A stretch of 64,000 nt of DNA from an uncultured Acidimicrobiales bacterium (GCA_963736285.1 CAVTOA010000003.1:281652-345651); one strand, 5' to 3'. Shown: positions 4,107 to 36,788, counted from the first letter of the stretch. Numbers and translations: made by a program. The notes: generated by a model from the sequence alone, not told the origin.

Positions 4107-4330
4107 CTCGTCAACAAGCTCAATCGGCTCGGACACGCAAGCAAGCTTGCGTATCTCTCGCCTCAGTCGTGTGATCCTCGCTTAGCTCGTCAACAAGCTC
4201 AGTCAGCTCGGACACGCAAGCAAGCTTGCGTATCTCTCGCCTCAGTCGTGTGATCCTCGCTTAGCTCGTCAACAAGCTCAATCGGCTCGGACACGCAAGC
4301 AAGCTTGCGTATCTCTCGCCTCAGTCGCTT
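4107..4330 (-). repeat. 79-bp tandem repeat, about 2.8 copies, abutting the tmRNA 3' end
   Basis: Units start at 4107, 4186 and 4265 (period 79). Each contains the hairpin ACGCAAGC-AA-GCTTGCGT. The core is about 95% identical to the repeats next to tRNA-Leu at 43335-43507. Confidence 0.9.
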
Positions 4331-4703
4331 GTGGAGGTGGCGGGAATCGAACCCGCGTCCTTCGTCGCTTCAACAGGACTTCTCCGGGCGCAGCTTGCTG
4401 TGCCTCTACTCGGCCTCACCGATCCCGCAAGCAAGTCGGTGTGACAGGCCCAGTCGCTGTTTGATGTCCCAACGAACCCCGCGACCGAGTTTGTTGGTGC
4501 AGTCCCCTAGCTGATGCCAGGATCCGGGTCGGGAACGTCCCCGGTCTGACAGAGGTGCTTCGCTTTAAGCAGCGAGAGCAACCTCAGCGCGGTTATTAAC
4601 ATTGGCGCTTATTGGTTTGCGACACGTGGTTTACGAGATCATCGTCGCCTTCCTCGGCCCGCTTCCCCTGCCTCGACGTCCGAAGTCGAGACCTGTCACC
4701 CCC
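4331..4703 (-). ncRNA. ssrA: tmRNA (transfer-messenger RNA)
   Basis: Minus strand begins GGGGGTGACAGGTCTCGAC and ends GGGTTCGATTCCCGCCACCTCCA. The acceptor stem is 7 bp with a G3-U pair. Internal tag ORF GCC AAT GTT AAT AAC CGC GCT GAG GTT GCT CTC GCT GCT TAA gives ANVNNRAEVALAA. CCA is not encoded. smpB is nearby. Confidence 0.93.
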
Positions 4704-6653: not shown

Positions 6654-7130
6654 CTATTCCATACCTTTGTTACGACGACCCATCGCTCGCGCTATCTCGC
6701 GATCAGCGTCACGTTTGGCGAGCGTTTGGCGTTTATCGTAGGAGCGCTTGCCGCGCGCTAGCCCGATCTCCGCCTTCGCCCGACCATGCGAAAAATAGAG
6801 TTTGAGCGGGACAAGCGTGAGCCCCGCTTCATTGAGTTTGGTCGTGATACGAGCGATCTCACCACGATGCAGCAGTAGCTTGCGTACTCGCCGAACTGGG
6901 TGATTAGTCCACGTCCCCTGGGTGTATTCCGGGATATGCACCCCATGAAGGAACACTTCGCCATTATCGATAATGGCGAAACCGTCCACAAGCGACGCAC
7001 GCCCCGCTCGCAACGACTTTACCTCGGTGCCAGTAAGCACCAAGCCAGCCTCAAACGTCTCGATGATGGCATAGTCGTGGTGCGCCTTTCGGTTGGTTGT
7101 CACCACCGAACGCCCTTGCTCGCGCGCCAC
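6654..7130 (-). CDS. smpB: SsrA-binding protein SmpB
   Basis: 158 aa. [10 protein letters not shown] ... GTEVKSLR ... LVPLKLYF ... [13 protein letters not shown] are typical SmpB sequences. Confidence 0.95.
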
Positions 7131-12307: not shown

Positions 12308-12853
12308 CTAACTCGACGTTGGTGCGCTCGCGAGCCAGCGCAAAACCGCTTTTTGGTAGGTGATAGAGAACTCCAAGGTGGCAACCTGAAAAGCGTCGCC
12401 TTCTTTCTTCGCCTCCTTGAGCTGCTCCTTGAGCTCCTCAAGCTTGGCATCGCGTGCCTGCGTCTGTGACTCGTAAAGCTCACGGAGCTGCTTAGCGCTG
12501 TGCTGGCCCCCGAACGCTGCCCGCAAAAGCAGCGGGTTTCGAAGCTGATCGCGGCCCGCAGGCTCGCCGAGCCACCGAGTAAAGGCACGCTTACCCGCAG
12601 CAGTGATCGAATACGGTTGGGAAGACCGCGGTCCCGGCTTGCCGGTACGCACGTACCCCGCCTCAGCGAGCAACGGCAGTTCCCGGTAGACCTGACTACG
12701 GGTAGTGGTCCAGAACGGACCCAAACGAGCCTCAGCCGTGGCCATGAGCTGGCCCCCGGTCATCGCTCCATCGTGGAGTAGCCCAAGCAGGGCAGCTGCT
12801 GTCGCATTAAGACCTTTGTCCGCCATACCTACACGCTGCCACGTTATTGCCAC
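12308..12853 (-). CDS. PadR-family transcriptional regulator
   Basis: Winged-helix PadR signature (LLGLLHDGAMTGGQL ... SQVYRELPLLAEAGYV ... YSITAAGKRAF) and a C-terminal coiled-coil. Confidence 0.8.
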   Translation of the reverse strand: MAITWQRVGMADKGLNATAAALLGLLHDGAMTGGQLMATAEARLGPFWTTTRSQVYRELPLLAEAGYVRTGKPGPRSSQPYSITAAGKRAFTRWLGEPAGRDQLRNPLLLRAAFGGQHSAKQLRELYESQTQARDAKLEELKEQLKEAKKEGDAFQVATLEFSITYQKAVLRWLASAPTSS

Positions 12854-12873: not shown

Positions 12874-12886
12874 TTCCACTGTGGAT
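12874..12886. promoter_or_regulatory. palindromic operator candidate upstream of the PadR gene
   Basis: TTCCAC-T-GTGGAT (ATCCACAGTGGAA on the gene strand), 20-35 nt upstream of the PadR ORF start. Shares ATCCACAG with the 13-mer box. Confidence 0.35.
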
Positions 12887-12952: not shown

Positions 12953-13411
12953 TCAACGCAAAGGTGAACGCGCTTCACTGACCGCGGTCCTTACCAAACC
13001 GTGAGAGAACCCAAACACCGTCCCGAAGGGGATTTGAACCAGGCGGCGGCATCTCACCATTACTGCTCTCCGGTCCACAGTGGCGGCCATGACTAGGGAC
13101 GCGTCATCAGTGAGCATGTACGAGCGATATTCACCAAGCGCATGCTGAGCGGCCTCCGTAGCGACGGGAAGCGCGTCGCCCTCCCGCACGCCAACCGCGT
13201 AGACGGCATCCGAGTCAAGCCCGGATGCAGCGGCGATGGCACCTCCGTCGCAGTCTGCTTGCAGGTCACGCTGGGCAAGGAACGCTGACGATGCGGCAGC
13301 TACACCGGCCGTGAGCAAACTCACGATGAGGAAGCACACCAATATAAGGGGAATACTGCTTCCCGCATCACCGTGGATCCGTGCGTGAATACCCGCCAAG
13401 AGCCGTCGCAT
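12953..13411 (-). CDS. TadE/TadG-like pilus assembly (pseudopilin-like) protein
   Basis: Start set at the Met that overlaps the upstream stop (TGATG). N-terminal hydrophobic segment IPLILVCFLIVSLLTAGVAAA. Last gene of the tad operon. Confidence 0.6.
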   Translation of the reverse strand: MRRLLAGIHARIHGDAGSSIPLILVCFLIVSLLTAGVAAASSAFLAQRDLQADCDGGAIAAASGLDSDAVYAVGVREGDALPVATEAAQHALGEYRSYMLTDDASLVMAATVDRRAVMVRCRRLVQIPFGTVFGFSHGLVRTAVSEARSPLR

Positions 13412-13920
13412 CAGACCGCCGCCGTCCGATACGTATCCACATGCACTACAAACCTGCCGGTCACAGTGTTGCGACTGCTGTCCAAAAAGCTTGGCACCCC
13501 CGGAACCGTGAATACCTGAACCACGCATGCGACAAACTCTGCCCCCGGCTCCAACGTGGCCGCACCAGGCGCTGGCGCAACCGGCCCGTTGTCGCACGAT
13601 TGATTGTGTTGGACAAAGCGAAGGAGGGCCTCGCTCGTATCAAGGTTTTGGTCTTGCAACGCCAACCGCACCGCAAAAACCGCACGGTCCACCCCGGTGT
13701 TCACGTTGTCCGCGCTAGCCACAGCACGTCCGGCCTCACGAGCGGCCTGGGTAACAGCGAAGACATTCCGCTGTAGCTCGAACACCGCCACCAACAGGTA
13801 CAGCAGTGGAACCAACACCATGATGCCAAGAAAGACAAATTCGATCGTCGCGGCACCGGTCTCGTCTCGGAACCGACCCAGCACACCACGAAGATTCCTA
13901 GTGCGAGATGGGAGCGTCAA
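13411..13920 (-). CDS. TadE-like protein
   Basis: TadE N-terminal motif GAATIEFVFLGIMVLVPLLYL. Overlaps both neighbouring genes (ATGA and TGATG). Confidence 0.75.
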   Translation of the reverse strand: MTLPSRTRNLRGVLGRFRDETGAATIEFVFLGIMVLVPLLYLLVAVFELQRNVFAVTQAAREAGRAVASADNVNTGVDRAVFAVRLALQDQNLDTSEALLRFVQHNQSCDNGPVAPAPGAATLEPGAEFVACVVQVFTVPGVPSFLDSSRNTVTGRFVVHVDTYRTAAV

Positions 13921-14354
13921 TTTCTTCCCTCCTTGACCGCATGGCCCCGCACCTCTAGTGGCAACACGTCACCCAATGGAGCAAAAAAGACCGGCAACGC
14001 GCCGTCACATCGAACCTCAACGGTCACAATCCCGCCGGTTCCCGTTGCTTGCCTGCCGGTACAGGAGAGCTGGGACGACGCCGATTCGCCTACGCCACGG
14101 CCGAGCAACACCCGGGCGCGACTCGCCCCAGCTGCTGAGGACACATTGGCTGCGGCGGCATAACGTGCGCCCTCAGCAACGCTCGCTGCCGCAACATTGC
14201 GGATGTACAGATATACCGCCACCTGCAGAATCGCCAACGTCAGGAAGATGAGCAGCACAGAGACCAAGGCAAACTCAACGAGCGTGGAGCCCTCCTCTGA
14301 CATCTTTGCGGTCGACACGTGCGCTCTGCGCAAGAAGGACGCCCGGAACGCCAT
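13917..14354 (-). CDS. TadE-like protein
   Basis: TadE motif GSTLVEFALVSVLLIFLTLAILQ, within the tad operon. Confidence 0.75.
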   Translation of the reverse strand: MAFRASFLRRAHVSTAKMSEEGSTLVEFALVSVLLIFLTLAILQVAVYLYIRNVAAASVAEGARYAAAANVSSAAGASRARVLLGRGVGESASSQLSCTGRQATGTGGIVTVEVRCDGALPVFFAPLGDVLPLEVRGHAVKEGRN

Positions 14355-14360
14355 CTCCGC

Positions 14361-14576
14361 CTAACCACCAGTGCCTGAAACCACTTGGCCAATGGCGGTT
14401 TGAACAGCACCAATGATCGCGCCCTTAAACACCGCAAAGACAGCAACAACCAGGCCCGCGGTCATCACCGTAACCATGACCCAGCCAGGAACATCGCCAC
14501 GATCCAGGCCAAGGCGTCGCAGTGACGATATGCGAGCTCGAACGGCCGTGATGGGCCAGCAACGTTGCATCCGCAT
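14361..14576 (-). CDS. Flp-type small pilin candidate
   Basis: Start chosen at the ATG preceded by GGAGG (ORF track extends to 14711). 71 aa with a charged leader ending RG, then DVPGWVMVTVMTAGLVVAVFAVF as a hydrophobic helix. Sits between tadC and the tadE genes. Confidence 0.6.
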   Translation of the reverse strand: MRMQRCWPITAVRARISSLRRLGLDRGDVPGWVMVTVMTAGLVVAVFAVFKGAIIGAVQTAIGQVVSGTGG

Positions 14577-14666
14577 GCACGCCTCCTTCATTGGGAGTAC
14601 AAATAGGATTGATTGACTGCACAGCGTAAAGGAAATGACCGACTGAGTGAGACCGCTGACTGCGCT

Positions 14667-14681
14667 CTGTGGATAACTCCC
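14667..14681 (-). promoter_or_regulatory. conserved box GGGAGTTATCCACAG upstream of flp
   Basis: Reads GGGAGTTATCCACAG on the gene strand, about 90-105 nt upstream of the flp start. The same 15-mer occurs at 17963-17977. Confidence 0.6.
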
Positions 14682-14721
14682 ATGCGGCTCGCGGTAGGCA
14701 AGCCAAATCACGCCCGACCCT

Positions 14722-15663
14722 TTATTGCGTCAACACGGTGATGCTCGCCAAGCCCGGGTAAAGAGCAAAAAGGACAGTAACGGGCAAGATCAGAAAGACC
14801 ACCGGTACCATCATCAAGATTTCCTTTCTCCCTCCCGCTGCGAGCAATGCACGCTTGCCCGCTTCTCGAACATCGGCCGCTTGTGCACGCAATAGCTCGG
14901 CCAATGGAGTTCCTCGCTCTAACGCGATCGCCACGCCATCAACAAATCTTGCCAATGGCGGAAGACTCGTGCGTTTGGAAAGTCGCTCCAATGCGGCAGG
15001 CAAGGTGACGCCCTCTCGCGTATTTGAAATGACGATCTTCAACTCTTTAGAGAGCTCACCGCCGCACAAGCGACATACGCGCTCCAGCGCCGCAAGGGGT
15101 GCTTCACCTGCGGTAACCGCAAGCGCGAGGAATTCCGCGACTATTGGAAACTCGGCGAGCATGTCCTGCTCACGACGCCGAACCCGCATGCTGAGCCACC
15201 AGTCATAGCCCAATGCACCCGCCAGAAATCCCGCGATCGCAAGCACGATGAGGGCTATGAGACTCACCGAACTGGCCGCAATAGATAGCAGCACAGATGA
15301 CAAGCCACCCATTACAAATCCAACAACGCCCCACACCAGTTGTTCAACTCGAAAATCCTCGACGCTCGCCGATGAGCCCAACGCGCTTAACCTGCGCTGC
15401 ACTGACCTGGAACCGCCAAGCGATCGCTCCATCATCGCCGCACCTCGCTCAAGAGCCGGCCGCAAAACCGCTAGAGGAACACCCCAAAGATGAAGCGTTT
15501 CATCGCTCTGAGCCAAGTTAGACGACGGCTGACGTGCACGAAGATAGGGAGCTAGGCGATCGTCGAGCCTCACCCGCCTCATTGGCGGTGAATACGCAAT
15601 AGCCACCAGGAGACCGGTGGCTCCAAAGAGGCCCAGTAACGCTCCTAACGCGACAGAGTTCAC
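14722..15663 (-). CDS. tadC: type II secretion F-family pilus assembly membrane protein TadC
   Basis: 313 aa polytopic protein with a T2SSF-like domain. 4-nt overlap with tadB. Confidence 0.8.
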   Translation of the reverse strand: MNSVALGALLGLFGATGLLVAIAYSPPMRRVRLDDRLAPYLRARQPSSNLAQSDETLHLWGVPLAVLRPALERGAAMMERSLGGSRSVQRRLSALGSSASVEDFRVEQLVWGVVGFVMGGLSSVLLSIAASSVSLIALIVLAIAGFLAGALGYDWWLSMRVRRREQDMLAEFPIVAEFLALAVTAGEAPLAALERVCRLCGGELSKELKIVISNTREGVTLPAALERLSKRTSLPPLARFVDGVAIALERGTPLAELLRAQAADVREAGKRALLAAGGRKEILMMVPVVFLILPVTVLFALYPGLASITVLTQ

Positions 15664-16526
15664 TGTAATACTCGCTTCTCTTCAGGCAAACGGCCAATGC
15701 GAACCATTGCGCGATAAGCAAGGATGCTCACAACTGCCCCAAGTAACAGCAGAATTCGGCCCGCAAAAGACTCGTACGCGCTCAAAGTGGCCGACTGAGT
15801 CGCAAGGAGAAGCAGCACGAGCCAAGGGGCAGCGACCGCAAGGCGAGCAGCATTAATGGTCCAATTTTGACGAGTCTCAAGCTCGGCGCGGGTACGACTC
15901 TCGTCACGCAGAAATGTCGATAGAGTCCGTAACAGCCGACCTAAATCTGTTCCCCCTACTTCGCGTGCGAGCCGTAACGACTCGCAGATCCGATCACCAA
16001 CGGGATCTGCGAGGTGAGTCTTGAGCCGATCGAGGCAATCCGAAAATTTGCCGGTAATTCGGTAATCGCTGGCAAAGCGGCCGAATGCGGCCTGGAGGGG
16101 CGCTGGACCCCGTACTGCCAAAGCCGCGACACCTTCTGGCAAGGAGAGGCCCGCGCGGACGGCGGACGCCAGACTGTCCACAACCTCCGGCCATACCTCG
16201 CGGAAATCAAGTCTGCGCCTTCTTCTTAGGCTACCGATCATCCCGACAGGAGAGAAAAACCCGAAGAATACAAAGCATGTGGCCACCGAGATGCTCCGGC
16301 TCAATGCCAACGTCGCCATACCTGCTAGCAAGCCCGCTGCCAGCTGTAGGCACATGACCTGCCACGGGCCCACTCCTGTGATTCCTGCTTGCCGCAGTGC
16401 TGCGGTTCGTCGCGCTTTCCACTTCGCAAGAGAGTCGGGTCGCTCCGGTCGCACGGGCGCACGACTGTGCCACACAAGCAGTACACCCAAGCCAAACAGT
16501 AACCCGATGACGGCGCCCATTAGCAC
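15660..16526 (-). CDS. tadB: pilus assembly membrane protein TadB
   Basis: 288 aa polytopic T2SSF-like protein. Overlaps tadA by 7 nt. Confidence 0.8.
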   Translation of the reverse strand: MLMGAVIGLLFGLGVLLVWHSRAPVRPERPDSLAKWKARRTAALRQAGITGVGPWQVMCLQLAAGLLAGMATLALSRSISVATCFVFFGFFSPVGMIGSLRRRRRLDFREVWPEVVDSLASAVRAGLSLPEGVAALAVRGPAPLQAAFGRFASDYRITGKFSDCLDRLKTHLADPVGDRICESLRLAREVGGTDLGRLLRTLSTFLRDESRTRAELETRQNWTINAARLAVAAPWLVLLLLATQSATLSAYESFAGRILLLLGAVVSILAYRAMVRIGRLPEEKRVLQ

Positions 16527-17881
16527 TCACCATCTCCCGCCGAAACAGAAGTCACCCGATATTTCGGCTCACTTCGGACAGCGTTGAGCAGCCGGACGAT
16601 ATCGATGCCCGCCCGGGTGAACCGCTCCATATTGGATGGGAAGCCATCTGCTCGTACGAGCTCATTGCCTCGAGTCGCAAAGATGTCGACTGATTCGATG
16701 ACTGTGCCCTCAACCCTGCCAGAGAGGGCTACGACTTCCCCTACTCGCCGCCTGCCCTGACTATCGCTGGTGAGGTGAACCACCAGATCAACACTCGCCG
16801 CGACAGTCGGGACAACGAAAGAGGCCGCGACATTGCTGCCTGCCAGCAGCGGGAGCGTACACAGTTTGGTAATCGCTTCTCGGGCTGAATTGGCATGGAC
16901 ACTCGCCATCCCCGGTAGGCCAGAGTTCAATGCTATGAGCAAGTCTAAGCACTCTGCTTGGCGAACCTCACCAACAATAATTCGCGAGGGGCGCATTCGG
17001 AGGGCTTCGCTAATGAGTCTGCGAAGAGGAATCTCCCCCGTTCCTTCCAAGTTTGGCTGACGCGTTTGCATCGGCACCCAATCCCGGGCATTTAGCCGTA
17101 GCTCAAAGACCTCCTCACAACTGATAATTCGATCATGCTGCGGAATCGCACCAGCCAAGCAATTTAAAAGAGTTGTCTTGCCGGCTTGAGTGCCCCCAGC
17201 CACAACGACATTGAGCCCAGCAATTACCGCCGCCTCTAGGAAACACGCTGCGTGCGCGGTCATAGTTCGAAGTGCGACCAGCTCCGTGAGGGACCGGGCT
17301 TTCACGATGAACTTTCGGATATTGACTGCCCAATGTTCCCGTGTGATGTCAGGTATGACTACGTGCAGGCGAGAACCATCTGGCAAAGTGGCATCAACAA
17401 ACGGGGTAGAAAGGTCAATGCGCCGCCCGGTGTGTTTAAGCATCCGTTCGACCAGCTCAGTTACCTGTTGGTAAGTGAGGACAACTGTTGTCAATTCGCT
17501 GCGATTATTGCGCGAGATAAAAACGTGACCGGGATCGTTGATCCATATCTCCTCGACTTCTGGATCGTCCAAAAACTGTTGCAAAGGACCGAGACCAGCA
17601 ACGGCGTCAAAAAGCATTTTTGCAACGCACTCGGCGTCAGACAGGGGCGGCGATATGCCCGCAGCAGCTTGTGTCGCATAGTCGACGATGGCCTGATCAA
17701 TTAGTGCGCGCACTGTGGCGGGCTCACGGGCAGGGTCGATGCCGTCGCGTCGGATCAGCTCATGTAGCACTGACTCCACAATGGCATATGAACCTACGGT
17801 GTTCTCTGCCCTTGTGTGACCTACATGGGCCCGTGATGCAGACTGCTTCGAGATACTGGTCAACGTGTTGGTTAATGCCAC
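16520..17881 (-). CDS. tadA: Tad/Flp pilus secretion ATPase TadA/CpaF
   Basis: 453 aa. Walker A GGTQAGKTTLLN, a CEEVFEL region and a RIIVGEVR box typical of VirB11/CpaF ATPases. Confidence 0.9.
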   Translation of the reverse strand: MALTNTLTSISKQSASRAHVGHTRAENTVGSYAIVESVLHELIRRDGIDPAREPATVRALIDQAIVDYATQAAAGISPPLSDAECVAKMLFDAVAGLGPLQQFLDDPEVEEIWINDPGHVFISRNNRSELTTVVLTYQQVTELVERMLKHTGRRIDLSTPFVDATLPDGSRLHVVIPDITREHWAVNIRKFIVKARSLTELVALRTMTAHAACFLEAAVIAGLNVVVAGGTQAGKTTLLNCLAGAIPQHDRIISCEEVFELRLNARDWVPMQTRQPNLEGTGEIPLRRLISEALRMRPSRIIVGEVRQAECLDLLIALNSGLPGMASVHANSAREAITKLCTLPLLAGSNVAASFVVPTVAASVDLVVHLTSDSQGRRRVGEVVALSGRVEGTVIESVDIFATRGNELVRADGFPSNMERFTRAGIDIVRLLNAVRSEPKYRVTSVSAGDGEC

Positions 17882-17962
17882 CGAAGCTACCTTCTTTATC
17901 CCTGATGGGTTACTAGCCGCCGCACGGATCGAGAGAACACTAGCTGACGGTTCAACCCCGCA

Positions 17963-17977
17963 GGGAGTTATCCACAG
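17963..17977 (+). promoter_or_regulatory. conserved box GGGAGTTATCCACAG upstream of the FtsK-like ATPase
   Basis: In the 254-bp tadA/FtsK-like divergent intergenic region, about 160-173 nt upstream of the GTG start at 18136. Identical to the flp box, and both share the preceding CCGCA. Confidence 0.6.
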
Positions 17978-18135
17978 TCACGCATTGTCAACAACGAACG
18001 CGCAGCGTCCATATGCGACTGCGCACATGCGGATTGTTTTGTCCAGCGGGGGAAAAAACTTGTGGAAAGAAACAGAGAAGTCTCGGCACCTGGGGATAAG
18101 GCGTCATCCGGTGAGAATTCACGCAGACTAGTCGT

Positions 18136-21100
18136 GTGGAATTCCCCATCACTTTCGTGGACTCTTGCGGCGATGAGCATGACCTAACTATCTCTGCGGC
18201 TCACACCACGACTGCGCAGGCCCTCGTGGAAAAGCTTCGCGAAATCGACCCGGACGCCCGCATCGACCGGCTTTACCATCCACAAGGACAATTGCGGGCC
18301 ACCCAGCGCATAGGAGAGCCACCCCTCATAGCCGGAATTCGACTCCAGGCCATGCCCGTCGTCTCGTCACGTGAACCGTCTACTACAGACAAGAAGCGTC
18401 AACGCCTCACCCTCACGGCTTCCCAGGACTTAACCTGTTCTCAATATCCTCCTCATGGCTCGCTACTGCTCCATGTCATAGCAGGACCAGACAGCGGCCA
18501 GGTACACCCGCTCACAAGCCGTAGGGCTACCACAGACAAAGCCCGGAAGTCGACTTCTACATCAGACAATTCGCGCAGCATCACGGTTGGCCGCAGCGAT
18601 TGCGCCGACGTTTCAATTGAAGACCCAGATGTATCGAGTCTTCATGCAAAGATAACAATTCGACCCGGATCTCTGCAGCTATCTGACTTGGGCTCAACCA
18701 ATGGCACGACGTTACAGGGAAGAGCCATTGATGGGCCTGTTGAGCTGTGGCCAGAACAGGTTATTCGGTGCGGCGGAAGCTTATTTGTAGTCTCGACATC
18801 GACATTCCCACCATTGCAACTCAGACCAAACCGCTCTGGCTTTTTGATGCTTGGAAGGCCACCTAGGGTCACTCCTCGCCATGTGCCTCCGGAGTTCAGT
18901 TTTCCTGCTCCCCCAATATCCCCACCTCGCACTCCCATACCGTGGCTATTGGTGATTACACCTTTGCTGATCGGAACTGCCTTCTATTGGATTAGTGGAG
19001 CATTACATGGCGATGGCGCGTACTTTCTTTTGCTCACTTTCCTCTCTCCTCTCATGGTTTTTCTCGGTGGACTAACCGACAAGATTGCTCGGTTTAAGGC
19101 TCACCGAAAAGCAATGTTGCGGCACAATCACGTTGTCGCCGATATAACGCAGGGGATAGCTGCTGCGGTCAGCGACGAGCAACAACGGCTGAGAACCGCA
19201 TTTCCCAGTCCCGCCTTACTCTTCCTCGTGATCTGTCACAGAAATTCGCGCCTGTGGGAACGGCGGCCGCGGGATCACGACAACCTGGTGCTTAGGGTTG
19301 GAACAGCAAACCTCCCCTCCGGACTGCGGATTCATGGAGAAACTGGCAACCGCACTCGCCAGCCGGTGAGCTTGCTTGCCTCACACCGGAAACCTCGGGA
19401 GGCACCCTCTCGAACCCTGGCAAGCGTGCCGGCCACGGTGCCACTCCGTGACGTGGGTGTGTTCGGAGTAGCAGGGCCGAGCCGCCTCGGAGTGGTCCGC
19501 TTCCTTGTCGCGCAACTGGCCGGACTCCACCACCCCAAAAATCTTCGCCTAGTGCTACTGGCAAATAACGACGCACCACAGCGCTGGAAATGGTTTCGGT
19601 GGTTGCCACACGCTGCCACCTCTGGCTCTCATCCGAATGGAGCAACCTTCCACATAGGACTATCGCCAGCTCAAAGGAACAGCAGAGTCGGCGAGCTTGG
19701 ATCGCTCATCACGGAGCGCATTTCCCACGACCCAGAAACGCTCCGGCAGCCAAACCATCACGGGCTCGTAGTGCGGCCAAATTATGTCGTGGTAATCGAC
19801 GACGCTGACCTGCTAAGAACCGAGGAAGGCGTTGCTCGCTTACTCATCGACGGCCCGCGTGTTGGAGTCTATGTGATCTGCCTCACCGAAGATTCGCTGC
19901 GCCTTCCTGAAGAATGCGATGCAACTCTGATCACTACTAATGCACCGGGCGAAGGTGCGACCCTACAGATCCGAAATCAGGCGACTCTATCGTCGATCAC
20001 CACCGAGTCTGTATCCCCAGATTGGACGGACACCATTGCGCGCGCATTGGCTCCACTCCACGACGCGGCCCCTGAAGAGGACCACCTTGACCTACCGCCC
20101 CAAGTCTTCCTAGAGGCGTTCTTGTCAGAGATTCACGCCAGGCACCGCGTTTACGTTGAAGCGCGCACCCCTTCCCGCAGACACTGGTCCAAAGCTCATC
20201 AGTCGCATGTCGAGCCATTAGTGCCGGAGAACGTGCACCAGCATTGGCTCGATAAGCCACGCTCATCGCTTGTTCCGGTCGGCATTGGCTCGGCCGGAAC
20301 GGTCGCTATCGACCTCATAAAAAACGGTCCACACGCTCTGATCGCAGGAACGACAGGGTCAGGAAAGTCGGAACTTTTGCAAACCATCATCCTTGGATTG
20401 GCCCTGGGTAATCACCCTCACGAGCTTTCTTTCATACTCATTGACTACAAAGGTGGCGCGGCTTTTTTCGAATGCGACGACCTGCCACACACGGTTGGGC
20501 TTGTCACCGATCTCGACAGTCAATTGACGAGACGTGCTTTGTCCTCGCTTCGGGCGGAGCTACGAAACCGGGAAAAAATCCTCGCGGCTCACCAGATGAA
20601 AAACCACGAAAGCTACTGCATCGCACGCGACCAGGCCTCGCCGCATACACAACCGCCCCGCGCTCACACTTCTACCTGGCCTCACATGGCCCGTCTCGTC
20701 ATCGTTGTCGACGAGTTTGCCGCACTGGCTCAAGAACTCCCTGAGTTCATCACAGGGCTTGTCGACATAGCGCGACGCGGACGTTCTCTAGGAGTGCACC
20801 TCATCCTCGCAACTCAACGTCCTGCGGGCGTGGTTTCGACGGAGATCCGTGCGAACACCGCGCTCCGAATGTGCCTGAGAGTGAACGATCCAGCTGAAAG
20901 TAGCGACGTCATCGGGGCAGTCGATGCCGCTCAACTCAGTCACACGCGGCCTGGTCGTTGTTGGATCCGGACCGGCAATACGTTGCAGCAGGTACAAGTT
21001 GCCTACGGCGGTGTCACTCCCCCCGTCGCCACAAGTGCCTCAGATGTCGACATAAGACATATGCCGTGGGAGGCGCTAGGAGACTCCTTGCAGGAGTTCA

Positions 21101-22824
21101 GCTCGTCGGGCCTCGCAAACGAAAGGGAGGCGGACGCCACTCGAATTGTGTCCACTCTTCGGCTTGCCGCAGCGCCTATCGCACCTCTGCCAAGCCCGTG
21201 GCTACCACCGCTTCCTCGCTTGATCACTCTTACTGAGCTGCTGACTTATTCCGGGAGGCCGCATTCACGCCCCGACTCCATCGATCGCGAGTCTCGGTGG
21301 TGCCTGGCTCCTGTTGGCTTACAGGACATACCTGACGAGCAACGGCGTGCTCTCTACGGACTGTCTCTACGCGGCTCTGTGAGATCCCCCGCCAGCCAAG
21401 ACGGCACCCTATCCAGTGCAGTGCCACTACCTGCGGCAACGAGCGCAGGTGGACCGTCAGATGCGGTGCACCACATCATGTTTGTTGGCGGACCGCATAG
21501 CGGGAAGACATCTGCGTTACGAATGCTGGCAGTCAGCGCCGCACAGTTTGCGACGCCCGAAGAGATGCAGATCTACGTGCTGGACTGTGCAAACGGCGAC
21601 TTGGCTGACCTCGAATATTTGCCCCATTGTGCTGGCATCGCCCACCATCTAGATCTGGAACACGGCGAGCGTTTGCTATACAGCCTGGCAAAAAACACAT
21701 CAACGATCGCGCCGGCAGACCGCCGTGGCGACAAGCCGGCAAAGATACTTCTGATCGACTCTTGGGAGGGTTTCTCTGAAAGCTATGGGTCTGTCGGCCA
21801 TGGTGAGCTCATGGACCTGCTTGGCCTCCTCTTGAGGACCGGTCCGTCCGCCGGAGTGCGGGTGGCAATAACAGGCGGCCGCGCTCTGGCAACAGCTCGG
21901 TTTGCAAGCCACATCACTGAGCGACTCATCCTGCCCTTCGCTGATGTGGACAGCTACTGTTCCCTCGGAGTCCCGAAAGACCAGATCCCCACCAACCCAC
22001 CCCCTGGCAGAGCTTTACGCATGGGTAGACAGATTACCGAAATTCAGCTCGCCGCCACCCAGGCAGTGCCACAGGCCGATCAACGCTCCCAAAAGGAGCT
22101 CGGACCCCGACGAATGATGCCCCTGCCTCAGCACGTAAGACTAGAGGAGCTTGAGCCCCAAGTAGAGCGAGCTCCTCACGCGGCGACACCTGCCGTAATT
22201 TTGGGCATCGGTGGTGAATACGCCCAACCGTTCCAGATAAACTTCGACGACATTACCTCCGGATTGTTGGTGGTCGGTCCACCAGCAAGTGGGCGTACAA
22301 ATACACTTCGGCTCTTTGCACACGCTGCCAGTCAAGCAGCTCGCCAATTTTTTGTCATTTCTTCCCAGAAAACAGAATGGCAGCTGGGGCAAGCGGATAT
22401 ACAACACTCCTATGTGGCCTCTCACCGAGAACCAACGGATGGCCATTGCTTCAGTACAAGCGGCATAGCCGAGCTGGAAAACGCCTTGAAAACGCAAGCG
22501 ACCAAACCCGCGATCATTATCGTCGACGACGCTCAACAGCTCCTGGACACTGAAATGGGAGAACGGCTGTCCACCCTCGCACGAACCGGTGAGCACACAG
22601 TGATTGCGAGTGTCGCCACAGAGGACTTACATAACGCTTTTCGGGGACTCATTCACGAACTACGACGCGCCCACACCGCACTTCTGTTATGGCCCAAGTA
22701 CCACGATGGCTCTCTCTTCGACCTGCAACTAAGTCGCGCAATTGGCCTGCGCTACCCAGGGCGTGGGCTCTACATCGCGCGCGGAAACGCCACACCCATA
22801 CAGCTCGCCCGCATAGGAAGCTGA
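18136..22824 (+). CDS. FHA-domain FtsK/SpoIIIE-family (EssC/EccC-like) membrane ATPase with four P-loop-type domains
   Basis: 1562 aa. FHA-like segment (ITVGRSDCADVSIEDPDVSSLHAKI...GSTNGTTLQG) and two TM helices (IPWLLVITPLLIGTAFYWISG, YFLLLTFLSPLMVFLGGL). One degenerate P-loop domain (GVAGPSRLG ... VVVIDDAD) is followed by Walker A GTTGSGKS with IVVDEF, GGPHSGKT, and GPPASGRT with IIIVDDAQ. Confidence 0.85.
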   Translation: MEFPITFVDSCGDEHDLTISAAHTTTAQALVEKLREIDPDARIDRLYHPQGQLRATQRIGEPPLIAGIRLQAMPVVSSREPSTTDKKRQRLTLTASQDLTCSQYPPHGSLLLHVIAGPDSGQVHPLTSRRATTDKARKSTSTSDNSRSITVGRSDCADVSIEDPDVSSLHAKITIRPGSLQLSDLGSTNGTTLQGRAIDGPVELWPEQVIRCGGSLFVVSTSTFPPLQLRPNRSGFLMLGRPPRVTPRHVPPEFSFPAPPISPPRTPIPWLLVITPLLIGTAFYWISGALHGDGAYFLLLTFLSPLMVFLGGLTDKIARFKAHRKAMLRHNHVVADITQGIAAAVSDEQQRLRTAFPSPALLFLVICHRNSRLWERRPRDHDNLVLRVGTANLPSGLRIHGETGNRTRQPVSLLASHRKPREAPSRTLASVPATVPLRDVGVFGVAGPSRLGVVRFLVAQLAGLHHPKNLRLVLLANNDAPQRWKWFRWLPHAATSGSHPNGATFHIGLSPAQRNSRVGELGSLITERISHDPETLRQPNHHGLVVRPNYVVVIDDADLLRTEEGVARLLIDGPRVGVYVICLTEDSLRLPEECDATLITTNAPGEGATLQIRNQATLSSITTESVSPDWTDTIARALAPLHDAAPEEDHLDLPPQVFLEAFLSEIHARHRVYVEARTPSRRHWSKAHQSHVEPLVPENVHQHWLDKPRSSLVPVGIGSAGTVAIDLIKNGPHALIAGTTGSGKSELLQTIILGLALGNHPHELSFILIDYKGGAAFFECDDLPHTVGLVTDLDSQLTRRALSSLRAELRNREKILAAHQMKNHESYCIARDQASPHTQPPRAHTSTWPHMARLVIVVDEFAALAQELPEFITGLVDIARRGRSLGVHLILATQRPAGVVSTEIRANTALRMCLRVNDPAESSDVIGAVDAAQLSHTRPGRCWIRTGNTLQQVQVAYGGVTPPVATSASDVDIRHMPWEALGDSLQEFSSSGLANEREADATRIVSTLRLAAAPIAPLPSPWLPPLPRLITLTELLTYSGRPHSRPDSIDRESRWCLAPVGLQDIPDEQRRALYGLSLRGSVRSPASQDGTLSSAVPLPAATSAGGPSDAVHHIMFVGGPHSGKTSALRMLAVSAAQFATPEEMQIYVLDCANGDLADLEYLPHCAGIAHHLDLEHGERLLYSLAKNTSTIAPADRRGDKPAKILLIDSWEGFSESYGSVGHGELMDLLGLLLRTGPSAGVRVAITGGRALATARFASHITERLILPFADVDSYCSLGVPKDQIPTNPPPGRALRMGRQITEIQLAATQAVPQADQRSQKELGPRRMMPLPQHVRLEELEPQVERAPHAATPAVILGIGGEYAQPFQINFDDITSGLLVVGPPASGRTNTLRLFAHAASQAARQFFVISSQKTEWQLGQADIQHSYVASHREPTDGHCFSTSGIAELENALKTQATKPAIIIVDDAQQLLDTEMGERLSTLARTGEHTVIASVATEDLHNAFRGLIHELRRAHTALLLWPKYHDGSLFDLQLSRAIGLRYPGRGLYIARGNATPIQLARIGS

Positions 22825-25867: not shown

Positions 25868-26905
25868 TTAGACCCTCACGCTAGCGAGCTGCTGGCGAAG
25901 TAGCCGCAATGACGTTTCCTGAGCCACCTCGATAACGAGAGACCTACGCGACACGTCCATCAAGTTCGCCCCCATCGCCGTCAGATCATCCAAACCCGGG
26001 CACAGTACGTATACCTTGGCGCCGCTCCTTATGATGTGCTCCATCTCTCGACGCAAACGCCGCGTCACCGAACGCCTCCATCGACGCTCAAGACGTGCCA
26101 ACATTCCTGTCGGTGAATCCAATGCAAAGGCCGCCAGCGGTGCTACTACATAGATCTCATCCAGATTCTCTTGTGCGAGCAAATCTGCTGACGTCGACGA
26201 ATACATTCCGCCATCGACGTAACGTCGCCCATCAATGTCGACCGGTGTAAACCAGCCAGGAATGGCACACGAGGCTCCGACCGCCGCCGGCAACGAGGGA
26301 AACGGCGAGCCAGCTCGCCCGAATGCCACTCGCTCGCCAGAGTCGTAATTCATCGCCACTATCCACAATGCGGGATGCGGCGCCCATGTGCGTTGTGGAC
26401 CCAGGGCCAGTTCAACGATGTCCTCGATCGGCGCCAGAGAACCACGCCCAAGGGGCAACAGTGCCGACAGGGCCGCACGCGGCGTAATGCTTCGAGGATT
26501 GCGCAAAGCCGTGAGCAACAGCCTCATAGAACCCGGGCGCAAATGAGGCCGGCTAGGGCGTGGACGTCCTCCGTTGAGCTCATCGTTGTAGTCGATGAGG
26601 AAGTCGCCCGGCGCGGGCGCACCCATCTGTTGACGCAACATCATTGGCACTGATATGCCGCAGCCCAGCACGGATCCCACAAGTGCGCCAGCTGACGTGC
26701 CGACGATGATGTCGACTTGCCGGCAGTCTAAGCCCGTGGATTTTTCTAACGCGGCCAGCGCCCCTACCATCCAGGCATACCCGAGAACACCTCCACCGCC
26801 GAGGACAAGACCGCGCCGTACTTGATCTCCGTCTACCACGGTCTCATCTTCCCCCTCGTCACGACGGTTGCGCGGAAAGGCGCCGCCTTTCCTGGCTGCT
26901 GCCAC
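25868..26905 (-). CDS. patatin-like phospholipase
   Basis: Oxyanion GGGGVLG, nucleophile elbow GTSAG and catalytic DGG motif. Confidence 0.85.
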   Translation of the reverse strand: MAAARKGGAFPRNRRDEGEDETVVDGDQVRRGLVLGGGGVLGYAWMVGALAALEKSTGLDCRQVDIIVGTSAGALVGSVLGCGISVPMMLRQQMGAPAPGDFLIDYNDELNGGRPRPSRPHLRPGSMRLLLTALRNPRSITPRAALSALLPLGRGSLAPIEDIVELALGPQRTWAPHPALWIVAMNYDSGERVAFGRAGSPFPSLPAAVGASCAIPGWFTPVDIDGRRYVDGGMYSSTSADLLAQENLDEIYVVAPLAAFALDSPTGMLARLERRWRRSVTRRLRREMEHIIRSGAKVYVLCPGLDDLTAMGANLMDVSRRSLVIEVAQETSLRLLRQQLASVRV

Positions 26906-28175
26906 CGGACATCAGTGCCGGGGATCCGACCAATGACTCGGCAATCTGGGCGAGACGCACCCGAAGACGAGATTCTGGCGCTACCTCTGCAAGGGTTCGC
27001 CCTACCGCCACCGCTCGATCCGCCGCCAGCTGATCGTGAGGCAATTGCTGCGCATTAATGACTCCCGCATACCGCTTTAGCGCAGCCATTACCTCCTGCT
27101 CCGGATCGCCGGGGACCACACCACGGCGGGTCTTATTAACCACCACGTGGCGTGTCGTATCGGGCACTATCCCCGCTAACTCGTCCAGACCCCGGATCAG
27201 CCTGCCCATGCCCACCGGATCAGCCGCTCCGACCGCCACCACAATGTCAGAAGAAGCCAAAGCCGCCAATGTGGCTCCATTACGTCTAGGTGCCATAGTG
27301 TCGTAGGACAGTTCTTCGTCTGTCTCTAAGCAAAATCCGCAGTCGATGACAGTGAACGCAGCAAGCTCCCGCGCTCGAGCCAGCACCGCCATCAACGAAT
27401 CCGGACGCAGCTCCACCCACCTCTCAGGTCGCGTAATTCCCGTCAAAACCCTCAACTGAGGATGGATAGCCCTGGCCAAGCCGGCGAGTGCTGGTATGTC
27501 TAGCGCACCATTATTGGCCAAGTGAGCTGCGGCAGCGATGCCCGGCGCCTCGTCCAGCATGCTAAGCATTTGGGCAATCGTCCCCCCATAAGAATCCGCA
27601 TCTATCAGTAATGTCGGAACGCCCAATCGAGCGGCTTCATCCGCCAATCCGATTGCCAGAGTGGTACGGCCGGGTGCACCGGTCGGACCCCACACCGCTA
27701 CTACTCGTCCCGGTGCCGCAGGTGAAATTGGACCACGGTTGTCCGCAGGTAGAGACGCTGAAAAGAGAGCCGCTCGAGGGTCGGCTGGCATGTGTCGCGC
27801 AGACGAAGGCCGCATTTGTGCCGCACCCCGAATAAGAGCTTCTGCCACAAGCGCTGCTGGAGATCGCAAAGGCAAGACCTGCGTCAGACCCAGTTGACGT
27901 AGCCGCCGCTCCCCCGCTTCGTCGTGTGCATCGACCAGCCCCACGATGGCGACGCCGGCCGCATATAGCCGAGTGAGTATCTCGTGATCGAGATGTCGAA
28001 GGTCCGCGGAGAGCAAGGCCGCACGCGCAACGCCGACCGATGCCGTGGCTAGAAGATCCGCAACGTCAGCACATCTGCGCACTACGGCAATCCCATGCTC
28101 GGCTTGACCCAGTGCGGTGACCAAGGCAGCCTCGAGCTCGGCATTAGTGACGGCGGTCAGTACTGGCAAATCCAT
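26859..28175 (-). CDS. CpaE/TadZ- or Ssd-like ParA/MinD-family ATPase
   Basis: N-terminal receiver-like domain followed by the deviant Walker A VVAVWGPTGAPGRTTLAIGLA. Resembles M. tuberculosis Rv3660c in its tad context. Confidence 0.75.
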   Translation of the reverse strand: MDLPVLTAVTNAELEAALVTALGQAEHGIAVVRRCADVADLLATASVGVARAALLSADLRHLDHEILTRLYAAGVAIVGLVDAHDEAGERRLRQLGLTQVLPLRSPAALVAEALIRGAAQMRPSSARHMPADPRAALFSASLPADNRGPISPAAPGRVVAVWGPTGAPGRTTLAIGLADEAARLGVPTLLIDADSYGGTIAQMLSMLDEAPGIAAAAHLANNGALDIPALAGLARAIHPQLRVLTGITRPERWVELRPDSLMAVLARARELAAFTVIDCGFCLETDEELSYDTMAPRRNGATLAALASSDIVVAVGAADPVGMGRLIRGLDELAGIVPDTTRHVVVNKTRRGVVPGDPEQEVMAALKRYAGVINAQQLPHDQLAADRAVAVGRTLAEVAPESRLRVRLAQIAESLVGSPALMSGGSSQERRRLSAQPS

Positions 28176-28214: not shown

Positions 28215-29057
28215 TCATTGATGAGAAGCCATGTTGTGGGAGCTCCGCTGGTTAGCCGGCACATTGCTTGAAGACGTGGGATGCGTCGGTGGCGGCACGG
28301 ATGCGGAAGAGCTAGCCCTTGGATCCGCTTTAGCGCCGCCCAACTTCGTAGGCTCGCACAATGACGTTCGGGTGGTGGAGCCCGCGGATAGCGTGACATC
28401 GATCTCCGCCGCCCGGACCGCGTTGACAACGCGCGAAGTGGTGTCCGACGCCACCCAGACTGTCAGCGACCATTCGCCTGTGTCGGAAAGACCCGAATGA
28501 GGCGAGGTCACGTCTTGCACGGTGGCGCTCTGCAGTACTCGCTCTGTCTGGCCTGCCCTGTTGTCTCGAGGGCTGGCAAAAACATCGACACGCCGGCCCC
28601 GGGTGACAGAAGGCGGAAGGTGGTGCGATGCCACCGGAATGCTCACCAAGGCACCACAGGCCGCGACACGCAATGCACCACGAGGGATGAGCTCATGCGC
28701 TGACACATCTCTCACCAGTGTCTTTCCGGTCACAACTTGTGTGTCGGCGAAATATTGCGCTGAGCCCCTGGGTAGCCGCACGCTTACTCGTTCAATATCT
28801 GCGGCAGTCAGCGTTGCGCCCGCAGCAGTGTCGTGCCGTACTGCCCACACAAGCGTCGAGTGGTCGGCGGACGCAACAACACGTGCACCGAGAGCGACCG
28901 AGACGAGCAACAGAAGGACACCACACACAAGACGAATGTTGAGCCATGTGGGCATCCGAGTACGGGTGGCGCTAGGAGAGGCGAAGTGCCCCTCACCCGC
29001 CGCACGTAACGGACCCTCCGTTGCTTTGATCGCAGAGGGCGACGACACCTGACTCAT
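28215..29057 (-). CDS. SAF-domain protein (CpaB/RcpC-like pilus assembly protein)
   Basis: Start set at the Met preceded by GGAGAGG (ORF track extends to 29321). One TM helix, then a SAF-like segment (AAGATLTAADIERVSVRLP...VTGKTLVRDVSAHELI). Directly upstream of the cpaE-like gene. Confidence 0.65.
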   Translation of the reverse strand: MSQVSSPSAIKATEGPLRAAGEGHFASPSATRTRMPTWLNIRLVCGVLLLLVSVALGARVVASADHSTLVWAVRHDTAAGATLTAADIERVSVRLPRGSAQYFADTQVVTGKTLVRDVSAHELIPRGALRVAACGALVSIPVASHHLPPSVTRGRRVDVFASPRDNRAGQTERVLQSATVQDVTSPHSGLSDTGEWSLTVWVASDTTSRVVNAVRAAEIDVTLSAGSTTRTSLCEPTKLGGAKADPRASSSASVPPPTHPTSSSNVPANQRSSHNMASHQ

Positions 29058-29378
29058 CGAAATACCTCTCCACACATACTGATTTGCGAGAAAACCTCGG
29101 CCATCCTGCACCATCACGACCAAAGCATCGAAAGTTTTCCACAAGAAGGATGGAAATCGCTTCCCCTGTGGACAGAGGAACCAGAGTCGGCGTAAGTGGC
29201 AAAATAAGGCAGTGCGCGGGGCAGGTTCCCCAACGCACTGACTAACCGCCGTTGCCGGTGGAGCGTTACGGCGCTCCTTCACCCGGACCAACCAGAACCG
29301 CACGGCTACACCAGTGATCATCAGGGAACAAACTGCTGTCTCTGATCAAGCACGGAAGAACAGAAAGCAGAGCCACCC

Positions 29379-29618
29379 ATGAGTTCCGACCGATTCCTTC
29401 AACTCGCCGAGGTAGCCGAAGTGCTCAATATCAGCGCCTCACAGACCTATGCATTGGTTCGTTCGGGAGAGCTACCGGCCATCAAGATCGGCGGGCGTGG
29501 CCAGTGGCGAGTCGAGCGAGACGAGTTAGAGAAATACATCAAGCGGATGTACACGGAGACGCAGAAATTTGTTCGCTCTCACCCGCTCGAACGGGACGAG
29601 GCATTTTCTAGCGACTAG
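29379..29618 (+). CDS. excisionase-family helix-turn-helix DNA-binding protein
   Basis: 79 aa. FLQLAEVAEVLNISASQTYALVRSGELPAIKIGGRGQWRV matches the excisionase/MerR-like HTH pattern. Confidence 0.75.
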   Translation: MSSDRFLQLAEVAEVLNISASQTYALVRSGELPAIKIGGRGQWRVERDELEKYIKRMYTETQKFVRSHPLERDEAFSSD

Positions 29619-35648: not shown

Positions 35649-35945
35649 GCAATTCGCAATGGTGTCAACCGGGATTGGGGTTTACCGGCGACTACTTGGC
35701 TCCGCCGACGCCTACCAAACACAAAGCGCCCACGGCAATCGAATTACGACCACCCCCACTTGCGATCGAGGATTGAACTAGCGGCATCTACAACCGTCAC
35801 TTTTAGTGTGGATGCAACGCTGTAAAACCGACGCTAACGCTTCGCGCGCGCCCAGTCACCCCTTGTCGGCAAATCCGTCCTATTTCCTTGCCGTATCTCA
35901 ACATCTGGTCGGAACTCTTGACGAGAACTACAGAAGAAAGAACGG

Positions 35946-36725: not shown

Positions 36726-36775
36726 CCGTTTAGCGTTCCGTTGATATCTCTATGCCGCTAGTGGCGCGGATAAAA

Positions 36776-36788
36776 CTGTGGATAACTC
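36776..36788 (-). promoter_or_regulatory. conserved box GAGTTATCCACAG upstream of comF, flanked by two TTTTATCCG repeats
   Basis: The gene strand reads TTTTATCCGAGAATTGAGTTATCCACAGTTTTATCCGCG, 52-64 nt upstream of the comF GTG. The 13-mer is identical to the flp and FtsK-like boxes. Confidence 0.55.

Follow-up and report, generated by a model that had tools for sequence, protein, structure and literature searches.

A DnaA-box-like promoter element common to Tad-pilus and DNA-uptake genes in Actinomycetota

What does one and the same short sequence do in front of a pilin gene, beside a large FtsK-like ATPase gene and, in slightly shortened form, ahead of a competence gene? The question is raised by a 64,000-nucleotide (nt) stretch of DNA from an uncultured Acidimicrobiales bacterium (GCA_963736285.1 CAVTOA010000003.1:281652-345651; positions are counted from its first letter), which is referred to here as the window; it covers 64 kb of its source genome, with a G+C content of about 58% and an actinobacterial character, and the tad, comF and comEA loci of relatives with which it is compared are taken from other genomes. 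An initial annotation of the window had pointed to an identical 15-mer upstream of both the flp pilin gene and the ATPase gene, and to a third copy of a 13-nt part of it upstream of comF. This element, called the box below, recurs 5' of genes for the Tad pilus and for DNA uptake. It is tentatively explained here as the promoter-proximal operator of a Tad-pilus and DNA-uptake regulon of the Actinomycetota that would be read by DnaA, an account that comes first among those considered, though with slightly more weight against it than for it.

The boxes of the window are as follows.

14667-14681, minus strand: box 1, the flp promoter box, GGGAGTTATCCACAG, an exact match aimed toward flp
14667-14677, minus strand: the core 11-mer of box 1, GTTATCCACAG, an exact match
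17963-17977, plus strand: box 2, GGGAGTTATCCACAG, an exact match between tadA and the FHA-FtsK ATPase gene, in inverted orientation with respect to tadA and in direct orientation for the ATPase gene
29135-29144, plus strand: box 5, TTTTCCACAA, toward the HTH_17 gene
29166-29175, minus strand: box 4, CTGTCCACAG, toward the SAF/CpaB-TadZ operon
36776-36790, minus strand: box 3, the comF promoter box, TTGAGTTATCCACAG, an exact match aimed toward comF, containing the 13-mer GAGTTATCCACAG at 36776-36788

Exact matching recovered the 15-mer at both of its reported sites and the third 13-mer ahead of comF, and the CCGCA that had been said to precede copies 1 and 2 is there as CCGCA(T/G). Over 14667-14687 and 17957-17977, boxes 1 and 2 agree at 20 of 21 nt (CCGCA(T/G)GGGAGTTATCCACAG), an identity that exceeds the family consensus and that is not seen between the tadA and flp boxes within the genomes of relatives; one promoter may recently have been converted by the other, or an additional contact specific to this lineage may be involved. 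The distances first given are also borne out, with 90 nt from the end of box 1 (14667) to the ATG of flp (14576) and 158 nt from the end of box 2 (17977) to the GTG of the FtsK-like gene (18136). The corresponding distance from the end of box 3 (36776) to the GTG of comF (36725) is 50 nt. What had been missed is that box 2 additionally lies 82 nt 5' of the GTG of the divergent tadA gene (17881), and that two less perfect boxes, 4 and 5, stand in the interval that separates the HTH_17 gene from the SAF/CpaB-TadZ operon.

It is clear that these copies are not random, as the initial annotation had argued. The 13-mer GAGTTATCCACAG has three exact copies in the window and none in each of 100 dinucleotide-preserving shuffles. 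A scan with the 15-mer at up to 3 mismatches gave at least 3 matches in 16 of 100 shuffles, which by itself is not significant; since this loose scan is uninformative alone, the significance rests on the exactness of the copies. All three exact copies in the 64 kb are intergenic and lie 5' of functionally linked genes. A chance origin is ruled out both by the shuffles and by the conservation of the element among relatives.

This conservation was followed first around tadA, in 80 species-level loci (L001-L080) obtained by a scan of a genome collection with TadA, at 61-71% identity; they come from Cellulomonas, Frankiales, Jiangellaceae, Dermatophilaceae and many metagenome-assembled genomes (MAGs), and in most of them the order tadA-B-C-flp-tadE-F-(G)-(PadR)-prfB is kept. 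The hexamer TCCACA occurs, in either orientation, within 250 nt 5' of tadA in 69 of the 80 loci against 4.6 expected (binomial P 1.6e-73). When TTRTCCACAG was sought with up to one mismatch in 1.5 Mb of related loci, 68 of the 133 matches fell in the 500 nt 5' of tadA, and a small peak of matches inside tadB is a coding-sequence effect. The flp box is present in the four closest relatives (L001-L004) and absent from most lineages, while the tadA box persists. A second set was drawn from metagenomes by a scan with Hpf, giving 80 mtrA-mtrB-lpqB-comF-hpf loci, 32 of which hold the comF start together with at least 120 nt upstream; TCCACAG stands right after the lpqB stop codon in 29 of these 32 against 1.05 expected (P 3.7e-40), although the loci of both sets, 80 and 80, are related by descent, so that these binomial P values overstate the independence of the observations. 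The box closest to comF is always aimed toward comF, and a second box often lies 19 nt upstream of it, direct or inverted.

The comEA loci, which were found through ribosomal protein S20, are from Mycobacterium only. In one Mycobacterium lineage two direct boxes (TTTTCCACAG-8 nt-TGATCCACAG) precede comEA-comEC-holA, and this pair is the sole occurrence of TCCACAG in the 18-kb loci L173, L175 and L177; in a second lineage, where the remaining spacer has diverged, both boxes (GTGTGCACAG-8 nt-TAATCCACAA) persist together with the -10 element. One motif therefore stands 5' of pilus genes (tadA, flp, SAF-tadZ), of comF and of comEA-comEC, which is what a competence regulon would show, and the footprinting at tadA, flp, comF and comEA in many Actinomycetota upholds the earlier suggestion that the box ties tad to competence genes as a common cis-signal. 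A motif scan of the related tad and comF loci for comEA, comEC, dprA and recA found none of these genes, and the sequence of the comEA promoter of Micrococcus luteus was not found printed in those M. luteus papers and supplements that were searched. Published expression data fit a common tad/com regulon: in M. luteus the regulation of tadA1 and tadA2 goes together with that of comEA (PMC6667448), and in Rhodoluna lacicola comEC and dprA are induced along with tad genes (PMC8591293).

Several other genes in the tad loci of relatives also carry boxes. One lies 5' of ftsE in L004 (20709), as box, 37 nt, TAGACT, 8 nt and GTG; another is 5' of a gene of the tryptophan 2,3-dioxygenase-like kind that FtsK-FHA and tadA flank (L001, 8681; L003, 8974); and a small lipoprotein gene after tadG is boxed in L027 (14627/14658), L035 and L053, with two boxes 31 nt apart. 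These genes have no obvious link to competence. In Cellulomonas edaphi (L024) a box-like repeat array is found just 3' of prfB, at 16034-16500, where a unit of about 90 bp that bears GGTGGTTGTCCACGGAT occurs four times in tandem.

The consensus of the box is G-Y-Y-R-T-C-C-A-C-A-G; the site is single and asymmetric, and the logo shows no further half-site. When the logo was anchored on TCCACA alone, the first G (G0) was present in 72-84% and the last (G10) in 68-92% of the tad/com sites, against 43% and 35% for background occurrences of TCCACA. Flanks beyond this core are not conserved between species. Downstream of each box in the window a promoter is predicted.

14623-14628, minus strand: flp promoter; box 1, 38 nt, predicted -10 TACGCT, read from the sequence
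17937-17942, minus strand: tadA promoter; inverted box 2, 25 nt, predicted -10 TAGTGT, read from the sequence
29124-29129, minus strand: SAF-tadZ promoter; box 4, 36 nt, predicted GATGCT, 6 nt, GTG at 29117
29182-29187, plus strand: HTH_17 promoter; box 5, 37 nt, predicted CAGAGT
36732-36737, minus strand: comF promoter; box 3, 38 nt, predicted weak -10 AACGCT, 6 nt, GTG at 36725

The same spacing recurs among relatives. The flp boxes of L001-L004 lie 36-39 nt 5' of TANNNT. At comF, 24 of 28 loci have a NANNNT hexamer 37-39 nt past the box, followed after 5-7 nt by ATG or GTG; because of this arrangement comF transcripts are predicted to be leaderless and to start from a weak, non-consensus -10 element (CAGGCT, CACGGT, AACGCT), and in the window, too, the comF transcript looks leaderless. 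At tadA, direct boxes stand 37-40 nt from TANNNT, a smaller group of them being 27-29 nt away, and inverted boxes are 27-28 nt from TANNNT in 23 of 30 cases. Direct boxes at 37-39 nt and inverted boxes at 27-28 nt thus form two classes that are one helical turn apart, with the orientation flipped. At mycobacterial comEA, 50 nt separate the proximal box from TACCGT, which is followed by 6 nt and ATG. The box therefore keeps a fixed distance and helical face to a weak core promoter, as is expected of class I and class II operators, and from this layout we infer a site for a monomeric class I/II activator that would contact RNA polymerase, so that the box would serve in activation rather than repression.

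Which protein would read such a site? All three exact copies in the window hold TTATCCACA, and the logo of the relatives, Y-Y-R-T-C-C-A-C-A, agrees with the DnaA-box consensus TT(A/G)TCCACA. The published high-affinity DnaA box differs with the type of lineage in the same way as the box does, being TTATCCACA in one, as in the window with its 58% G+C, and TTGTCCACA in the other, as in the high-G+C relatives (PMC4285127). The resemblance to an Escherichia coli-type DnaA box noticed in the initial annotation in fact extends beyond the identical 9-mer, since the 13-mer GAGTTATCCACAG of the window is identical to R4 of E. coli oriC, and R1 of the same origin, as read in the oriC sequence, is GTTATCCACAG. 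Among the E. coli sites found by chromatin immunoprecipitation and sequencing (ChIP-seq) of DnaA are those of oriC and datA (gagTTATCCACAg) and of purH (gagTTATCCACAa), and most of the sites listed have the flanking G's (PMC11317965); the tad/com boxes likewise have a G on both sides of the 9-mer, as do R1, R4 and datA. Furthermore, the off-consensus variants TCCCCA and TGCACA of com boxes recur in mycobacterial oriC, and the asymmetric site is used in both orientations, like DnaA boxes. As the box is in these respects an optimal DnaA site, DnaA is taken as its most likely reader.

The box lies on one face of the helix just 5' of predicted weak, often leaderless promoters, at about -61 to -52 when it points toward the gene and at about -47 to -38 when it is inverted, with a second box often 18-19 nt further upstream. 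In the window the genes that it precedes are flp-tadEFG, tadABC (possibly with the FHA-FtsK ATPase gene), SAF-tadZ, HTH_17 and comF, and Mycobacterium adds comEA-comEC. With DnaA as the reader, occupancy of the box would report the state of replication initiation and would turn on the DNA-uptake machinery, with the HTH_17 protein as a box-driven member of the regulon that may tune its output.

A number of observations weigh against this account, besides the common descent of the loci mentioned above. The boxes of the oriC and dnaA promoter of M. tuberculosis and of a second Mycobacterium, two close origins, show no preference for G0 or G10; the letters after them are t, a, t, a, g, a etc., and no G is conserved before them, so that at these two origins the flanks do not match those of the tad/com boxes. 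Box pairs are spaced 18-19 nt from start to start, as compared with the gap of 2-3 bp that E. coli DnaA prefers. Mycobacterial DnaA is poor at binding single boxes in vitro. A strict rule of orientation and spacing is more typical of a dedicated activator, and every promoter element on which that rule is built is a prediction. Finally, screens on the comEA/EC promoter of M. luteus pointed to the HTH_17 gene and the gene beside it, to ClpXP and to an FtsK-like gene, and dnaA does not figure among the hits consulted (PMC8467076).

The comparison with known DnaA sites has the same two sides. In the 9-mer the box is the same as the high-affinity DnaA boxes of E. coli (oriC R1 and R4, datA, DARS) and the actinobacterial TTGTCCACA, and the 13-mer of the window shares the flanks of E. 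coli R4 too; it differs from them in that the sites described here are away from the origin, are single or paired at 18-19 nt and are fixed to a -10 hexamer, and it differs from the boxes of the mycobacterial oriC and dnaA promoter in the conservation of G0 and G10. DnaA is known as a transcription factor at E. coli dnaA, nrdAB and polA, where DnaA boxes in the promoter couple expression to the state of replication initiation; its E. coli targets by ChIP-seq are tabulated in PMC11317965. The DnaA regulons described so far deal with replication, nucleotide supply, repair and the cell cycle, unlike the pilus and DNA-uptake genes found here. Elsewhere DnaA regulates sda in Bacillus subtilis and gcrA, hdaA and ftsZ in Caulobacter. 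A search of the accessible literature returned nothing on control by DnaA over pilus or DNA-uptake genes or on any DnaA regulon of the Actinomycetota, and it yielded no earlier account of this element or of a cis-element for actinobacterial competence.

As one short motif common to the promoters of DNA-uptake genes (pilus, comEA/EC, comF), so that the sequence itself reveals the regulon, the box is like the streptococcal cin-box of sigma-X, the ComK boxes of B. subtilis and the CRP-S sites of Sxy/TfoX, from which it differs in that its sequence is unrelated, single and asymmetric and lies 5' of the -35 region. The cin-box is a -10-type element of a sigma factor, and ComK and CRP-S sites are dimeric or tetrameric. 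The pilus, moreover, is here of the Tad/Flp type and not a Com pseudopilus or a type IVa pilus. In its working, not as a matter of membership, the box resembles the marbox of MarA, SoxS and Rob, which follows the same logic of an asymmetric site for a monomer; by the marbox rule reportedly set out by Martin et al. in 1999, distal sites (about -55 to -60) need one orientation and proximal sites (about -45), which are one helical turn closer, need the opposite one. There is no sequence similarity to the marbox and no AraC-family protein is implicated. A further parallel is BldC of Streptomyces, a small monomeric MerR/Xis-like helix-turn-helix protein which, like the candidate HTH_17 protein, belongs to that kind of regulator and recognises asymmetric, directional sites of about 9 bp (PMC5859096). 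BldC sites (AATTxxxxC), however, form contiguous head-to-tail repeats, whereas the box GYYRTCCACAG is single or repeated at 18-19 nt.

The strongest competitor to DnaA is encoded in the window itself, about 9 kb past the ATPase gene, where a TadZ/CpaE-like and a SAF/CpaB-like gene are followed by a divergent gene for a protein of 79 amino acids (aa) from the HTH_17 family.

26859-28175, minus strand: TadZ/CpaE/Ssd-like ATPase gene (NCBIfam CpaE_hom_Actino, below cut-off)
28215-29117, minus strand: SAF/CpaB-like gene (NCBIfam CpaB/FlgA, below cut-off; RcpC/SAF Pfam matches on orthologues)
29379-29618, plus strand: HTH_17/excisionase-family protein, 79 aa (NCBIfam TIGR01764)

By domain content and position this trio matches Mlut_14660/14650/14640 of M. 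luteus, and point mutations in those genes and in Mlut_07490 alter comEA/EC promoter activity and transformation (PMC8467076). The protein has 7986 homologues, of which the top 120 are 72-85% identical. The predicted CAGAGT element downstream of box 5 would give its gene a 5' untranslated region (5'UTR) of about 185 nt. On the other side, the longest open reading frame (ORF) of the SAF/CpaB-like gene begins at 29321 and would engulf boxes 4 and 5; the promoter architecture suggests that its start should be revised to the GTG at 29117 (or the ATG at 29057). The convergent pair of boxes between HTH_17 and SAF is also present in L163, L164, L165 (Cryptosporangium arvum) and L196, and the L186 family has a single box there.

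It is quite possible, if less probable than reading by DnaA, that this HTH_17 (excisionase/Xis/BldC-like) protein is the master regulator of competence, binding the box as a monomer, activating the com and tad genes and its own promoter and being restrained post-translationally, in which case the likeness to a DnaA box would be coincidence or functional mimicry. Genetics gives this its main force: nearly all M. luteus mutants with raised comEA/EC promoter activity carried a missense change in Mlut_14660 (S27L, S46F, R64W) or a change in the 5'UTR of that gene or in the SAF gene beside it; 10 of the mutants had S46F, a knockout proved unobtainable, and ClpX/ClpP mutants share the phenotype, as fits an activator under proteolytic control (PMC8467076). 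The authors of that work, however, read the Mlut_14660 protein as a repressor, and its apparent essentiality would be strange for an activator of competence only. The gene lies inside the regulon, divergent from SAF-tadZ and with one convergent box per promoter, and a convergent pair is what one usually sees where a local regulator controls its own gene; conservation, too, is as strong for the protein as for the box. The conserved G0 and G10, absent at mycobacterial oriC, suggest a footprint longer than the 9-mer of DnaA and are counted for HTH_17. As to what it binds, the related 68-aa BldC protein is a monomer with directional binding to asymmetric 9-bp sites (PMC5859096), but HTH_17 has no known DNA specificity, the BldC consensus AATTxxxxC is unrelated to the box, and the nearest solved structure is a weak match (phage Xis 4J2N, E = 0.14). 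Since a chance match to an optimal DnaA box with its flanks is very unlikely, deliberate mimicry has to be supposed for HTH_17. A more specific and rather unlikely form of this idea has HTH_17 as a dedicated mimic of DnaA in box reading, evolved to recognise the optimal DnaA box, which activates the regulon and itself and competes with DnaA at the boxes, possibly also at the origin; if true, DNA uptake would be tied to a pause in replication initiation, and this would explain the apparent essentiality in M. luteus, the de-repressing missense alleles, the ClpXP phenocopy and the extra G's beyond those of origin boxes. Because a near-best DnaA site is likely to be bound by DnaA regardless, DnaA is ranked first and HTH_17 second; a combined model, in which the two proteins would compete or cooperate at the same box, is a further possibility.

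Other readers are improbable. The PadR gene (12308-12853) directly follows the tad genes on their 3' side, both here and in L001-L004, and the palindrome upstream of it, TCCACAGTGGA, includes the core of the box, but PadR is found beside tad in 8 of the 80 loci as against 69 of 80 for the box, and PadR proteins act as dimers on inverted repeats, not on a single, asymmetric site; PadR is ruled out by its presence in so few loci, and its palindrome is a separate feature. MtrA comes into question because comF lies immediately 3' of mtrA-mtrB(-lpqB), so that MtrA is encoded just 5' of it, and because MtrA boxes (GTCACAgcg) have CACAG in common with the box and are present in mycobacterial oriC. 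The MtrA motif from ChIP-seq, however, is a degenerate direct repeat, cGT/AnAC/Tc, with a period of about 11 bp (PMC6265350), whereas the box has no repeat unit of this type and its pairs are 18-19 nt apart or inverted; this mismatch in motif and repeat structure rules out MtrA. Some further protein as the reader is likewise improbable. Least credible of all is that the copies are not regulatory, being instead a dispersed repeat or the end of a mobile element, the arms of an invertible 3.3-kb tadABC segment, or hexamers of an alternative sigma factor. Boxes 1 and 2 do form an inverted repeat of about 21 nt (CTGTGGATAACTCCCNTGCGG) around tadC-tadB-tadA, and their identity reaches past the family consensus; against this, no recombinase gene is found nearby in the window, and the relatives do not share the extended flanks, mostly lack the flp box and vary in orientation. 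The 21-nt arms are specific to the window, the relatives keeping the 11-mer only, which rules out inversion and a dispersed repeat alike; a repeat is also at odds with the count of three exact copies in 64 kb, all between genes and 5' of linked ones, and with the concentration of matches 5' of tadA in relatives. A sigma-factor element is rejected because the box lies 37-39 nt 5' of the -10 hexamer, beyond any -35 element, or 27-28 nt when inverted, and is used in both orientations. Of the four readers initially put forward, DnaA and the helix-turn-helix protein encoded at 29379 consequently still lead, and PadR and the sigma factor have dropped out.

Box 2 raises the further question of which of its two neighbours it serves. 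The genes of the tad locus run in the order tmRNA (transfer-messenger RNA), ftsX/ftsE, prfB, PadR, TadG/F/E-like genes, a 71-aa gene in the flp position, tadC, tadB and tadA, and the gene for a 1562-aa FHA-FtsK/SpoIIIE (EccC-like) ATPase is divergent from tadA.

12953-13597, minus strand: TadG-like gene (Pfam TadE/Tad matches on genes 3' of flp, as for the next two)
13411-13920, minus strand: tadF-like gene
13917-14354, minus strand: tadE
14361-14576, minus strand: pilin-like gene in the flp position, 71 aa (tblastn to relatives, same position in 67 of 80 loci)
14722-15663, minus strand: tadC (Pfam T2SSE/T2SSF matches in the tadABC operon, 14722-17881, as for the next two)
15660-16526, minus strand: tadB
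16520-17881, minus strand: tadA
17985, plus strand: weaker box-like TTGTCAACA between tadA and the FtsK-FHA gene (this and the next two from a scan at up to 1 mismatch and direct reading)
about 18059, minus strand: weaker box-like CTTTCCACAA, same intergenic region
18091, minus strand: weaker box-like TTATCCCCA, same intergenic region (17985-18099)
18136-22824, plus strand: FHA-FtsK/SpoIIIE (EccC/EssC-like) ATPase, 1562 aa (Pfam FHA and FtsK_SpoIIIE)

Box 2 most likely serves the divergent tadA promoter, to which it is assigned because it has the geometry of the inverted class toward TAGTGT and because no -10-like hexamer is present 37-39 nt downstream of it on the ATPase side. The spacing of 25 nt at tadA is 2-3 nt shorter than the 27-28 nt of the inverted class in relatives, a deviation which, given the apparent indel errors of the window described below, may not be real. 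It was with the ATPase gene that box 2 had originally been associated; the geometry favours tadA instead, although the FtsK-FHA genes of some relatives (L033, L072, L007) have boxes of their own, and box 2 possibly serves the ATPase gene as well. The FHA-FtsK gene stands divergent beside tadA in 15 of the 80 related loci, and its product scores under the curated cut-offs of the NCBIfam EssC/EccC models (type VII secretion ATPase, three P-loop domains). It is the positional counterpart of Mlut_07490 of M. luteus, which adjoins tad-1 and whose mutant is reduced in competence (PMC8467076). The flp ORF matched no Pfam or NCBIfam model.

Upstream of PadR, about 25 nt 5' of its GTG (12853), the perfect palindrome TCCACAGTGGA occupies 12875-12885 on the minus strand; it is kept in the same place in L001, L003 and L004 and replaced by the variant TTCCACTTTGGAA in L002. 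This could be an autoregulatory operator of PadR, or a box so positioned as to repress. The tmRNA gene (4329-4703, tag peptide ANVNNRAEVALAA), near smpB (6654-7130), is ordinary.

Past the HTH_17 gene the order is a fragmented secA, hpf, comF, mtrB and mtrA.

34881-35648, minus strand: hpf, 3' of comF (conserved mtrB-(lpqB)-comF-hpf-secA synteny)
35946-36725, minus strand: comF, a ComFC-type competence protein with a phosphoribosyltransferase fold (weak Pfam/NCBIfam matches)

In the window comF follows mtrB directly, with no lpqB in the interval (36726-36848), whereas nearly all relatives have mtrA-mtrB-lpqB-comF; the missing lpqB is one part of a hint at a reduced genome. The spacer between comF and hpf (35649-35945) is about 300 nt long, or about 420 nt if hpf begins at its S30AE domain. 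In other bacteria a raiA-motif RNA occupies this position. Here the spacer matched no Rfam family even at E <= 1, and a structured RNA is ruled out, since Rfam found only the tmRNA and one tRNA in the whole window. The secA gene (31830-34092) is split into at least 3 ORFs, with SecA_DEAD, PP_bind, P-loop and SW pieces. As secA is split alike in the sister MAG loci L163 and L164, this looks like a homopolymer indel error of long-read MAG assembly and not like a pseudogene, and for the same reason small deviations in spacing within the window should be read with caution.

Natural transformation in Actinomycetota has been known for decades, and papers on the model organism M. luteus from 2021 and 2026 call its regulators and signals unidentified. 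That a phylum-wide box is common to the promoters of the Tad pilus, of comF and of comEA-comEC strengthens the case for the conserved tad locus by prfB encoding a competence pilus in many lineages besides M. luteus. It makes the regulon predictable from sequence in any genome, mycobacteria included, and it leaves two testable proteins as candidates for the master regulator. Reading by DnaA would wire DNA uptake to the replication initiator, a physiological connection not known before, and would add a novel class to the targets of DnaA; reading by HTH_17 would give the genetic hits in M. luteus a mechanism and a binding site. In either case the box offers a concrete handle on how Actinobacteria control natural transformation.

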